Assembly: GCF_003334765.1 (NCBI RefSeq)
Contig: NZ_QOWT01000001.1
DNA length: 64,000 nt
Reading direction: 5' to 3' (one strand)
Source: Escherichia coli
GTDB taxonomy: Bacteria; Pseudomonadota; Gammaproteobacteria; Enterobacterales; Enterobacteriaceae
Part shown: piece after piece, positions 40,405 through 45,025 of the stretch
Layout: each line of letters begins with the position of its first letter
Position numbering within the stretch: the stretch's first letter is position 1
Notes under the pieces: model-generated
The model's database searches: none
The model's input: the letters and a program-made list of their open reading frames with translations, nothing else
Told to the model about the DNA's origin: nothing
Position numbers and translations under genes: made by a program

Positions 40405-41337
40405 ATGTGGTCAGAATATTCACTCGAAGTTGTTGATGCGGTAGCGCGTAATGGTAGTTTTAGCGCTGCGGCACAGGAGCTGCATCGCGTTCCTTCTGCG
40501 GTCAGCTATACCGTGCGTCAGCTGGAAGAGTGGCTGGCGGTGCCGCTCTTTGAACGACGGCACCGTGATGTGGAGCTGACCGCTGCTGGAGCGTGGTTTC
40601 TCAAAGAAGGGCGCTCTGTTGTCAAAAAAATGCAGATCACCCGCCAGCAATGTCAGCAGATAGCGAACGGCTGGCGCGGTCAGTTAGCTATCGCAGTGGA
40701 TAATATTGTCAGGCCAGAACGTACACGGCAGATGATCGTTGATTTTTATCGCCATTTTGATGATGTCGAACTTCTTGTCTTTCAGGAAGTGTTCAACGGT
40801 GTCTGGGATGCGCTTTCCGACGGGCGCGTGGAACTGGCGATTGGCGCAACACGCGCGATTCCGGTAGGCGGTCGTTATGCCTTCCGGGATATGGGGATGC
40901 TAAGCTGGAGTTGCGTTGTTGCCAGTCACCACCCGCTGGCGTTGATGGATGGCCCGTTCAGCGATGATACGTTGCGCAACTGGCCGTCGTTGGTGCGCGA
41001 AGACACCTCGCGAACGCTACCTAAACGTATTACCTGGTTGCTGGATAACCAAAAAAGAGTTGTCGTGCCTGACTGGGAATCATCGGCAACCTGTATCTCG
41101 GCAGGATTATGCATAGGGATGGTGCCAACACATTTCGCCAAACCGTGGCTTAATGAGGGGAAGTGGGTAGCATTAGAACTGGAAAACCCCTTTCCGGATT
41201 CGGCATGTTGTCTGACATGGCAGCAAAATGATATGTCGCCTGCGTTAACCTGGTTGCTTGAGTATCTCGGCGATAGTGAGACGCTGAATAAGGAGTGGCT
41301 GCGGGAGCCGGAAGAGACTCCCGCAACGGGTGATTAA
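40405..41337 (+). CDS. ydhB: LysR-family transcriptional regulator (PunR)
   Basis: 310-aa ORF with an N-terminal wHTH ([23 protein letters not shown]). Confidence 0.85.
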
Positions 41338-42359
41338 CGACGATAGTCGCGGAACGGGCCGTCAGCCACGGAGCGGCGTTCAATCAAGCGCGGATGCACT
41401 TCAATAGACTGCGGTTCTTCACGTTTGTTGACGATACGATCCAACAGCATGTTGAACGCTGTTTCACCCAGCGAATCTTTTGGCTGATGGATCGTGGTCA
41501 GCGCCGGCGTAAAATAGCGCGCGTTGCGCACGTTATCATAACCGATCAGCGAAACATCCTGCGGGACGCGCAGGCCCATTTCATCAGCAGCACAAAGTGC
41601 GCCCATTGCCATGATATCGCCACCACAGAAGACGGCAGTAGGGCGATGCGGCTGCGACAGGATTTGCTGCATGGCGCGATAACCGGATTCAGGTTCAAAG
41701 TCACCCTGCACAATCCAGCTTTCCGGCACCTTGATCATCGCTTCTTCCATCGCCTTCATAAAACCGGCAAGGCGGCCTGCGCCGGTGTTACGTTCCAGCG
41801 GGCCGGGGATGACGCCGATTTCGCGGTGACCGCGTTCAATCAGATAACGCCCGGCCATGTAGCCGCCTTCGAACGCGTTATCAATGACCGCATCGGTGAA
41901 GTCAGCTTTTGCTTCACCCCAGTCCATGACCACCATTGGGATATGGCGATACTCTTCCAGCATCGCCAGCAACGGCTCTGGGTACTCAGAACACATCACC
42001 AGCAGACCATCGACGCGTTTTTGCGCCATCATCGACAGATAAGCCCGCTGTTTCTCAAGATTGTTCCACGCATTGCCCAGAATCAGGGTGTAACCTTTCT
42101 GGAAGCAATTTTTTTCAACTGCTTCAATGATCTCGGCAAAATAGGCCGCTTCGCTGCTGGTCGCCAGCAAACCGATAGACTTGGTGTGGTTAACCTTCAG
42201 GCTACGCGCCACCGCGCTAGGGGAGTAGTGTAATTCTTTAATCGCTGCCCACACGGCGTTGCGCGTTTCTTCAGCGACGAAACGTGTTTTGTTGATCACG
42301 TGTGACACAGTTGTAGTGGAAACGTTTGCTCGTTTCGCTACATCTTTTATTGTTGCCAT
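41334..42359 (-). CDS. purR: Purine repressor, LacI family
   Basis: 341-aa [58 protein letters not shown]…. Confidence 0.95.
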
Positions 42360-42402
42360 TCCATTTCACTCCAGACCCTAACTTCAGCTCCTGCAAAATC
42401 GC

Positions 42403-42418
42403 AAGGTAAACGTTTGCC
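42403..42418. promoter_or_regulatory. PurR operator (PUR box) in the purR leader
   Basis: Minus-strand reading GGCAAACGTTTACCTT matches the PUR-box core (ACGCAAACGTTTTCNT); purR autoregulation is established. Confidence 0.55.
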
Positions 42419-42657
42419 TTTACACACCTTACGCACAACAAAAGTGTTGCGGTACGCCGGAAAAACGACACGGAGCGTCAGGAAGGGGTCAATGGCCAGT
42501 ACGCAAATAGTGTAAGCGTGGAATTTTGGCCGATCTTGACGAAAAGGGGAAGTGGTAAAAACACTTATCATTATAAATGACGGGAGATTTTTTCATCACA
42601 GTGTGTAAAAATGCGTAATATCACTTTTTGTGTGGTAATAAAAAAGGAGAAAACTTG

Positions 42658-42747
42658 ATGAGCACCGACCTTAAATTTTCACTGGTAACAACGATTATCG
42701 TCCTCGGTTTGATCGTAGCCGTGGGTTTGACTGCCGCGCTGCACTGA
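42658..42747 (+). CDS. ynhF: Small single-TM membrane protein (29 aa)
   Basis: ATG…TGA encodes MSTDLKFSLVTTIIVLGLIVAVGLTAALH, preceded by a GGAGA RBS; below the ORF-track size cut-off. Confidence 0.7.
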   Translation: MSTDLKFSLVTTIIVLGLIVAVGLTAALH

Positions 42748-42912
42748 TTTCCTCTCGAGGGAGCGCGTTCTCCCTCGCATCTCCTTCCTGTTTGTTAGCA
42801 AAATGGCAAAAGTGTTTTCTCTTTTTGTTATTTTCATTTTTTTGTGATTGCTGTCATGCTTTCGCCACTTTAATGAATATCGCGTAATGACGCGAAGAGG
42901 TGGAGATAAGGC

Positions 42913-44082
42913 ATGAAAATTAACTATCCGTTGCTGGCGCTGGCGATTGGCGCGTTTGGTATCGGGACAACGGAGTTCTCGCCAATGGGCTTGTTGCCCG
43001 TCATTGCGCGCGGTGTGGATGTCTCGATTCCCGCTGCCGGAATGTTAATCAGTGCCTATGCAGTTGGCGTAATGGTTGGCGCGCCGCTGATGACGCTTCT
43101 ACTTTCTCATCGTGCCCGCCGCAGTGCGTTGATTTTCCTGATGGCAATTTTCACGCTCGGCAACGTACTTTCCGCCATCGCGCCGGATTATATGACCCTG
43201 ATGCTTTCACGCATTTTGACCAGCCTGAATCACGGAGCATTTTTTGGTTTGGGTTCAGTCGTGGCCGCAAGCGTGGTGCCAAAACATAAACAGGCCAGCG
43301 CAGTTGCCACTATGTTTATGGGGTTAACCCTGGCAAATATCGGTGGCGTGCCGGCGGCGACCTGGTTGGGTGAAACCATCGGCTGGCGGATGTCATTTCT
43401 GGCAACGGCGGGGCTGGGAGTGATTTCAATGGTAAGTCTGTTCTTCTCATTACCTAAAGGTGGTGCAGGGGCACGACCTGAAGTGAAAAAAGAGCTGGCG
43501 GTATTAATGCGTCCGCAGGTGCTGTCTGCATTGCTGACGACGGTACTGGGAGCTGGTGCAATGTTTACTCTCTACACCTATATCTCTCCGGTACTGCAAA
43601 GTATTACCCACGCAACACCGGTGTTCGTCACGGCAATGCTGGTGCTGATTGGTGTCGGATTCTCTATCGGTAACTATCTCGGCGGCAAACTGGCAGATCG
43701 TTCAGTTAACGGCACGTTGAAAGGCTTTTTGTTGTTGTTGATGGTGATTATGCTGGCAATCCCGTTTCTGGCCCGCAATGAGTTCGGCGCAGCTATTAGC
43801 ATGGTGGTGTGGGGCGCAGCAACCTTTGCGGTCGTACCGCCGTTACAGATGCGCGTGATGCGTGTCGCCAGTGAAGCGCCAGGTCTGTCTTCATCAGTCA
43901 ATATTGGTGCCTTTAATCTTGGAAATGCGCTGGGAGCAGCTGCTGGTGGTGCGGTAATTTCCGCTGGGCTGGGATACAGCTTTGTGCCGGTGATGGGAGC
44001 GATTGTCGCGGGACTGGCATTATTGCTGGTGTTTATGTCAGCCAGAAAACAACCTGAAACAGTTTGCGTTGCTAACAGCTAA
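42913..44082 (+). CDS. ydhP: MFS transporter
   Basis: 389-aa, 12-TM ORF. Confidence 0.85.
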   Translation: MKINYPLLALAIGAFGIGTTEFSPMGLLPVIARGVDVSIPAAGMLISAYAVGVMVGAPLMTLLLSHRARRSALIFLMAIFTLGNVLSAIAPDYMTLMLSRILTSLNHGAFFGLGSVVAASVVPKHKQASAVATMFMGLTLANIGGVPAATWLGETIGWRMSFLATAGLGVISMVSLFFSLPKGGAGARPEVKKELAVLMRPQVLSALLTTVLGAGAMFTLYTYISPVLQSITHATPVFVTAMLVLIGVGFSIGNYLGGKLADRSVNGTLKGFLLLLMVIMLAIPFLARNEFGAAISMVVWGAATFAVVPPLQMRVMRVASEAPGLSSSVNIGAFNLGNALGAAAGGAVISAGLGYSFVPVMGAIVAGLALLLVFMSARKQPETVCVANS

Positions 44083-44143
44083 TTAAACAAAAACGCAGAA
44101 GGATAACCTTCTGCGTTACAGTTGCTGACAACGTGCGATTTAT

Positions 44144-44305
44144 CTTGCCGGATGCGGTGTTAACGACTCATCCGCGTTGACATGAAAAGACGCGTTAGGC
44201 GTCGTATCATGCAGCGCTTGTCGGATGCGGCGAGTGCCTTATCCGACCTACATCGATGATCCGCGTAGGCCTGATAAGCGTAGCGCTTCAGGCAATGCTG
44301 CATTT
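44144..44305. repeat. REP/BIME cluster (repetitive extragenic palindromes)
   Basis: Several REP units between convergent ydhP and sodB, e.g. GCCGGATGCGGTG…, GTCGGATGCGGCGAGTGCCTTATCCGACCTAC, GCCTGATAAGCGTAGCGCTTCAGGC. Confidence 0.8.
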
Positions 44306-44316
44306 GCCATCAGTTA

Positions 44317-44898
44317 TTATGCAGCGAGATTTTTCGCTACGAATTCCCAGTTCACCAGCGCCCAGAAGTGCTCCAGATAGCCAGGACGTGCATTGCGATA
44401 GTCGATGTAATAAGCGTGTTCCCAGACATCAACGGTCAGCAGCGGAGTCGCATCGGTGGTCAGCGGAGTACCCGCGTTAGAGGTTGAAACGATAGCCAGT
44501 TTGCCATCGCTGTTTTTCACCAGCCAGGTCCAGCCAGAACCAAAGTTTTTGATCGCTGCATCAGTAAACTGCGCTTTGAAATCGGCAAAGCTGCCAAAAG
44601 ATGCGGCGATAGCTTCAGCGACTTTTCCAGTCGGTTCGCCACCGGCGTTCGGTGCCAGGCAGTTCCAGTAGAAAGTATGGTTCCAGACCTGAGCTGCGTT
44701 GTTGAATACGCCACCTTCAGAGCTGCGAATAATCTCTTCCAGTGATTTACCTTCAAACGCGGTACCTTTAATCAGGTTGTTCAGGTTAGTGACATAAGTC
44801 TGATGGTGCTTGCCGTAGTGATACTCGATGGTTTCCGCAGAAATGTGCGGTGCCAGAGCATCTTTAGCATATGGTAGTGCAGGTAATTCGAATGACAT
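44317..44898 (-). CDS. sodB: Iron superoxide dismutase
   Basis: 193-aa [49 protein letters not shown]…. Confidence 0.96.
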
Positions 44899-45025
44899 TG
44901 CTACTCTCCTTTATTATTAATTTGCATACGTACAATAGCCTTATTGTGCGTATGGATAGGGTAGCAAATTAAAAGGTGAGACAAAAGATGAACTTACCCT
45001 GTTGCCGTAACAACAGGGTAAAGTT

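Follow-up and report, generated by a model that had tools for sequence, protein, structure and literature searches.

The spacer between purR and ydhP in Escherichia coli raises the question of whether a 29-codon open reading frame (ORF) within it encodes a protein and, if so, which one, or whether the locus acts mainly as a non-coding RNA. The stretch analysed here, referred to as the window, is 64,000 nucleotides of E. coli chromosome. An earlier note on this DNA had pointed to a GGAGA ribosome binding site followed by an ATG and a 29-amino-acid, single-transmembrane, “ynhF-like” peptide, said to have been missed by the ORF track. A short ORF by itself does not rise above chance, because a mechanical ORF listing gives 76 ORFs of at least 20 amino acids in the 4.5 kb from 40500 to 45000. 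This one does so because its frame, length, start and ribosome binding site are conserved across genera, its substitutions show a synonymous bias, and its product is identical to a protein that has been observed. The 29-codon ORF is the known gene cydH, formerly ynhF. That the ORF is cydH, that it is translated into a subunit of cytochrome bd-I residing at the cleft of CydA, and that it is expressed from an orphan locus as a short transcript is an overall explanation in which we have very high confidence. The gene is by no means novel, as it is already annotated and structurally characterized.

Identity of the small reading frame

The ORF lies on the plus strand, with an ATG at 42658-42660 and a TGA at 42745-42747 enclosing 29 codons plus the stop, and its product is MSTDLKFSLVTTIIVLGLIVAVGLTAALH. 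The coordinates and the sequence put forward in the earlier note proved exact, including the ribosome binding site and the position in the purR-ydhP spacer. The features of the locus are collected in Table 1.

Table 1. Features of the purR-cydH-ydhP region, in window coordinates
Feature	Position	Strand	Remarks
purR	41334-42359	-	Upstream neighbour of cydH
LacI-family operator-like box	42316-42330		Inside the purR CDS
Rfam RF02081 “STnc550” match	42360..42750	+	Extent of the database family; spans the purR leader (antisense to purR), promoter region and complete cydH CDS
LacI-family operator-like box GGTAAACGTTTGCCT	42405-42419		In the purR leader; its conservation allows use as an anchor across genera
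Motif AGATTTT	42585..42591	+	Lies upstream of the candidate -10; invariant throughout the 28-sequence alignment
Conserved block TGTGTAAAAATG	42602-42613	+	Across genera TGTG[T/C]AAAAATG; 28-sequence alignment
Candidate extended -10, TGtAAAAAT	42604..42612	+	Inside the conserved block 42602-42613
Shine-Dalgarno AAGGAGA	42644..42650	+	7-nt spacer AAACTTG before the ATG
cydH (ynhF, b4602) CDS	42658..42747	+	Single-TM accessory subunit of cytochrome bd-I; sequence, PDB, NCBIfam, RefSeq, conservation
Antisense ORF, 52 aa	42679..42837	-	Overlaps cydH; frame shares the cydH wobble position
Conserved stem-loop CGAGGGAG-CGCGTT-CTCCCTCG	42756..42777	+	Starts 9 nt past the cydH stop codon
RNA 3' end mapped for the cydH transcript	42781	+	Term-seq; 4 nt past the hairpin, 34 nt past the stop
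ydhP	42913-44082	+	Downstream neighbour of cydH; sodB lies beyond ydhP

What had been called ynhF-like is ynhF itself, as is evident from three resources. Chain H of the cryo-EM structure with PDB entry 6rko ([quoted passage not shown]) is identical to the ORF peptide in 29/29 residues, and a PDB sequence search returns eight entries with this sequence, 6RKO and seven more. The NCBIfam profile NF033411 (small_mem_YnhF, equivalog, “cytochrome bd-I oxidase subunit CydH”) matches from end to end: residues 1-29 align with profile positions 1-29 of 29, and the score of 50.2 bits (E = 1.7e-13) exceeds the curated cut-off of 30. The RefSeq tables list a CDS cydH, WP_000102278.1, between purR and ydhP, which corresponds to b4602 in K-12 at 1737456-1737545 on the minus strand. 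The purR-ydhP spacer of the window shows no differences from that of K-12, and the gene is in all tested respects identical to that encoding E. coli K-12 CydH, also known as CydY or YnhF (b4602; UniProt A5A618; 6RKO chain H); it is the same gene. None of the evidence speaks against this identity. The assertion that it had been missed was right in so far as the ORF falls under the length cut-off of the ORF track, but the public RefSeq annotation does carry cydH.

With a query spanning 42360-42920, megablast finds the cydH locus in 5426/5426 complete E. coli genomes, and the listed records label the gene “cydH: cytochrome bd-I accessory subunit CydH”, adjoining ydhP. Four of these 5426 genomes have no match with a query coverage of 80% or more, and a plasmid carries one extra copy. 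In E. coli PCN061 (NZ_CP006636.1) the match comes in two pieces, split by an IS1A that is annotated beside cydH and ydhP.

The predicted peptide is strongly hydrophobic. Over residues 7-28 the Kyte-Doolittle hydropathy averages 2.45, which fits one transmembrane helix, as had been proposed, and all 14 distinct orthologous peptides described below have means of 2.0-2.65 over the same residues.

Conservation and selection on the peptide

Orthologous loci were fetched with the exact DNA motif GGNAAACGTTTNCCTNNACACACC (window 42405-42428). This anchor sits about 250 nt upstream, so that the sample was chosen independently of the ORF and of its ribosome binding site. Thirty loci were obtained, from Citrobacter, Escherichia, Kluyvera, Salmonella, Enterobacter, Superficieibacter and metagenome-assembled genomes, 27 of which were usable; the remaining three (L014 from Salmonella arizonae, L016 and L031) were cut too near the anchor. 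The alignment thus comprises 28 sequences, the window and 27 loci, and with an exact-match anchor it represents fairly close Enterobacteriaceae only.

Conservation of the ORF and its ribosome binding site across Enterobacteriaceae had been set beforehand as a test. The ORF is intact and exactly 29 codons long in 28/28 sequences, and the ATG and GGAG are kept in all 27 loci from other Enterobacteriaceae. In the start region the columns AAGGAG and TTGATGAG are invariant (AAGGAG…TTGATG), while folding of the alignment reveals, in the 150 nt upstream of the ATG, no conserved RNA structure able to occlude the Shine-Dalgarno sequence.

The pattern of substitutions is that of a coding sequence. The 26 distinct nucleotide versions of the ORF yield just 14 distinct peptides, among which the pattern MS..LK.SL.TT...L.LIVA....A.L. 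is invariant and the substitutions are conservative hydrophobic swaps. Variable sites number 17, 9 and 26 at codon positions 1, 2 and 3, with summed column entropies of 10.3, 7.0 and 32.6, respectively, and comparisons with Citrobacter species count 18-22 synonymous against 1-2.5 non-synonymous differences. The earlier note had named a lack of ribosome occupancy and of synonymous-biased conservation as the outcome that would speak against the ORF; this bias turns out to be strong, the pN/pS of the cydH frame being 0.186, the lowest of the six frames, as compared to 0.363 for the antisense frame that shares its wobble position and at least 1.0 for the other four. This comparative evidence indicates that cydH is under purifying selection as a protein.

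Codon periodicity alone would be ambiguous, because the antisense frame with the common wobble position is also free of stops, over the cydH body in 27/28 loci. The mechanical ORF listing indeed reports two competing frames: one that begins the cydH frame at a TTG at 42628 (42628..42747, 39 amino acids), and the 52-amino-acid ORF on the minus strand at 42679..42837. We consider the chance that either of these, a longer or an antisense product, is the true one to be negligible. The TTG start was rejected on account of an in-frame stop between the TTG and the ATG in most other genera, and the protein detected by mass spectrometry is a 29-amino-acid formyl-Met species with 100% coverage, the same length as the PDB chain. 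The antisense ORF was rejected as a shadow ORF, with twice the pN/pS of cydH and neither a conserved start nor a conserved length (the open stretch ranges from 39 to 193 amino acids). The 29-codon frame of cydH is therefore retained.

CydH as a subunit of cytochrome bd-I

The gene was discovered in 2008, as cited in PMC6853902, and assigned to cytochrome bd-I in 2019. In that year, purified E. coli bd-I was found by Thesseling et al. to contain an unexpected fourth subunit, a single helix, for which cryo-EM density was seen and which nanoLC-ESI-MS/MS identified as YnhF (PMC6853902). They named it CydY and pointed out that the cyd operon does not include its gene, which is located between ydhP and purR; later reviews, citing Safarian et al. 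and Thesseling et al. 2019, call the subunit CydH or CydY (PMC8951039, PMC12648545). According to the same report, YnhF is made at low oxygen (citing Hemm 2008/2010) and keeps its formyl-Met (citing Hemm 2008/2010 and Guan 2011). The subunit co-purifies with bd-I although the expression plasmid does not encode it (PMC8324918), cryo-EM structures from 2025 depict a CydA/B/X/H heterotetramer, and top-down mass spectrometry has detected the intact 29-amino-acid CydH, with formyl-Met and 100% coverage (PMC12529367). An intact protein seen by top-down mass spectrometry and cryo-EM is stronger evidence of translation than ribosome occupancy, which the earlier note had put forward as a test. Among the main texts searched, none combines cydH with E. 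coli ribosome profiling or with the mapping of transcription start sites. The text of PMC12529367 labels CydH as a subunit of bd-II, in conflict with the bd-II structure paper, and this looks like a slip; bd-II is devoid of CydH (PMC8585947).

Within the complex, CydH sits in the cleft of CydA between TM1 and TM9, where it blocks access to heme b595 (PMC8951039, PMC6853902, PMC12648545), and it is bound mainly by hydrophobic contacts, aided by a phospholipid (PMC8951039). Others have shown that bd-I contains CydH as a stoichiometric component, bound to a defined site on CydA. A review citing Safarian et al. 2019 states that CydH co-occurs with long-Q-loop bd-I oxidases (PMC8951039). The K-12 genome has both cydH and cydABX. 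The cydH locus is an orphan, located at 1,737 kb, about 963 kb away from cydABX at 771-774 kb, and it lies outside both the cyd and app operons.

CydH shares several traits with other small subunits of bd-type oxidases, namely E. coli CydX (37 amino acids), AppX of bd-II and CydS of Geobacillus. All are single-helix proteins that make hydrophobic contacts with CydA and have long been overlooked by annotation. However, CydX is encoded in the cydABX operon, in contrast to the distant cydH, and it binds the opposite side of CydA (TM1, 5 and 6, near heme b558), whereas CydH binds TM1/TM9 near heme b595. CydX is needed for assembly and stability, while CydH is specific for bd-I and has a proposed gating role rather than one in assembly. 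Sequence similarity of these small subunits to CydH was not found, and the PDB search with CydH returned CydH chains only.

On the basis of these elements, a mechanism can be proposed. cydH has a strong Shine-Dalgarno sequence of its own, from which it is translated into a formyl-Met peptide of 29 residues; this forms a single transmembrane helix and covers the membrane-facing access to heme b595 on CydA. According to the authors of the structures, it would thereby close the wide O2 entry that is used by the Geobacillus enzyme, in which hemes d and b595 are interchanged, and O2 would reach heme d via a narrower channel starting in CydB, which may act as a selectivity filter. The transcript is short and abundant and ends at a conserved hairpin just past the stop codon. 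Accumulation of the protein has been reported for low oxygen, the condition in which bd-I is used. The gating function is one deduced from the structures, and a mechanism of oxygen regulation of cydH is one that we infer.

It could also be imagined that CydH, although a genuine subunit of bd-I, is mainly structural: a lipid-like filler that would stabilize the pocket of heme b595 or sit in a secondary quinone site, and not an O2 gate. We regard this as less likely than gating, yet as a serious alternative. In mycobacterial bd the same cleft binds menaquinone, and in E. coli the site is fully occupied by CydH (PMC8951039). CydH may be dispensable for catalysis, because bd-II and mycobacterial bd are active without a subunit of this type and use an Ile residue as a barrier (PMC8951039, PMC8585947, PMC8324918); no cydH deletion phenotype was found in the literature accessible to our search. 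The mainly hydrophobic, phospholipid-aided binding and the conservative nature of the substitutions among orthologues would suit a filler as well. Against this, the location of CydH is taken to block the wide O2 entry in the two structure papers of 2019 and in later reviews, and the low pN/pS together with 14 invariant positions suggests more than a generic hydrophobic filling. A gating role, as read by the structure authors, is preferred.

Two further observations concern the behaviour of CydH in the membrane. In a bacterial two-hybrid assay it scores positive with RNase E, a signal that the authors ascribe to generic contacts between transmembrane helices, and a dual membrane orientation is cited in the same paper (PMC13232886). 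CydH may accordingly have partners beyond bd-I; taken jointly with the idea, discussed below, that its transcript is a dual-function RNA, we give this a slim chance.

Transcript of cydH and the STnc550 family

A stem-loop follows the cydH stop codon. Its core, GAGGGAG...CTCCCTC, is present in 28/28 loci, with loops that vary from 4 to 6 nt and with flanking and top pairs that change in a compensating manner. For this hairpin, alifold gives a consensus folding energy of -12.6 kcal/mol, as compared to about 0 for column shuffles. There is no U-tract after the hairpin and a scan for canonical intrinsic terminators does not list it; it is probably the 3' terminal hairpin of the transcript, acting either as a terminator or in protection of the 3' end. 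Supplementary file 1 of Adams et al. 2021 (PMC7815308) has a Term-seq “primary” ynhF 3' end at K-12 1737422 (minus strand), with about 655,000-662,000 reads in two conditions, and among about 75 rows of this table only three have read counts above it. An exact match of the flanking 61-mer places this end in the window (Table 1). Because so abundant a 3' end lies just past the hairpin, cydH is expressed as a short and abundant transcript ending for the most part before ydhP. The leader of the ynhF mRNA is reportedly trimmed by RNase G.

The 5' end is less well defined. A consensus promoter scan found no promoter for cydH on the plus strand, and a mapped transcription start site was not found in the supplements of PMC10268841, PMC4191395 and the Cappable-seq paper. 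The spacer does contain a block (42602-42613) that is nearly invariant across genera, and its sole variable base coincides with the unconstrained “n” of a TGn motif. If the extended -10 candidate within this block is functional, the transcription start site would be expected near 42619. Further upstream, the invariant AGATTTT is unlike a -35 hexamer and is a candidate for a regulator site or a promoter element. Matches to FNR, ArcA and CRP sites in the spacer, judged by eye, were unconvincing and were rejected. The candidate -10 region is also bracketed by a 4-bp inverted repeat, AGTG...CACT (42600-42603 / 42622-42625, plus strand), which becomes ACTG...CAGT in the Kluyvera clade (one pair being GC in 20 sequences and CG in six). 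With so short a repeat, an RNA stem and a symmetric protein-binding site are indistinguishable, and the change may represent a single evolutionary event.

A different view of the locus emerges from Rfam, where RF02081 (“STnc550”) is filed as an enterobacterial sRNA. With cmscan the window matches this family at 396.5 bits against a gathering score of 48, over model positions 1-388 of 388. This full-length match, the short transcript with its very abundant 3' end at the hairpin, and the high conservation of the spacer upstream of cydH might all be taken to mean that the locus is mainly a non-coding sRNA, with the ORF incidental or secondary, or, in a softer version, that it encodes a dual-function RNA. 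We judge this highly improbable. The CydH protein has been seen directly, by which the exclusive sRNA version is already refuted, and both the codon periodicity and the low pN/pS argue against it. The model starts one base past the purR start codon and ends three bases past the cydH stop; its ends are gene boundaries and do not match the mapped RNA end at 42781. Within the cydH CDS the consensus of the family displays wobble-position variability. In the consensus fold of the 28-sequence alignment the covariation term accounts for only -1.58 of -38 kcal/mol, most pairs being invariant; both strands fold about equally, with no strand preference, and the region 42498-42651 is essentially unstructured on either strand. 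A reading of the cydH leader as a structured sRNA was rejected on these grounds.

Much of the upstream conservation is explained by the purR leader and operator, and the upstream half of the match coincides with this leader and its LacI-family operator-like boxes. STnc550 is not mentioned in the literature searched. Thus, although the window belongs to RF02081 by score and matches its full 388-nt model, the model contains a complete, translated and selected CDS, in place of a non-coding RNA with conserved structure. The most fitting interpretation of the family is the mRNA region of cydH together with purR-leader DNA, not a non-coding RNA, and the high score arises because a conserved mRNA and shared regulatory DNA are combined in it. 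That the abundant, hairpin-terminated cydH transcript has a second function as an RNA is conceivable, yet no result of the analysis supports it; jointly with the notion of further CydH partners, it has the same slim chance given above.

Regulatory elements shared with purR

The two LacI-family boxes at ynhF/purR correspond to the autoregulatory operators of purR. Both appear among the GalR ChIP-chip targets that PMC5110547 lists for ynhF/purR. The 5' leader of purR also contains two Term-seq “orphan” 3' ends, at window positions 42427 and 42370 on the minus strand (K-12 1737776 and 1737833, plus strand). The first is found 5 nt past a hairpin at about 42433-42452 that covaries between genera (CGCAAC/GTTGCG versus CACAAT/ATTGTG), and just upstream, in the purR sense, of the box GGTAAACGTTTGCCT. 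This arrangement is compatible with a roadblock or with attenuation in the autoregulation of purR.

In Salmonella Typhimurium a MarA/RamA ChIP peak has been described for the purR<>ynhF spacer, and MarA has a neighbouring peak listed at sodB (PMC10268841). The Salmonella spacer corresponds to about 42360-42657 of the window, and the peak hints at an input of a stress regulon to the purR-ynhF spacer.

Implications

If the cydH transcript starts as far upstream as RF02081 implies, the whole of its leader would run antisense to the 5' leader and operator region of purR. Were this true, such an antisense leader could couple the control of the purine regulon to the oxygen-dependent expression of a respiratory subunit.

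More generally, cydH is useful as a positive control, being a true 29-codon gene that was picked from a ribosome binding site, a start codon and hydrophobicity alone, and the conservation tests behave on it as expected for a real small protein. An Rfam “sRNA” match can represent the mRNA of a small protein, and length cut-offs in ORF tracks lose functional subunits of the respiratory chain.
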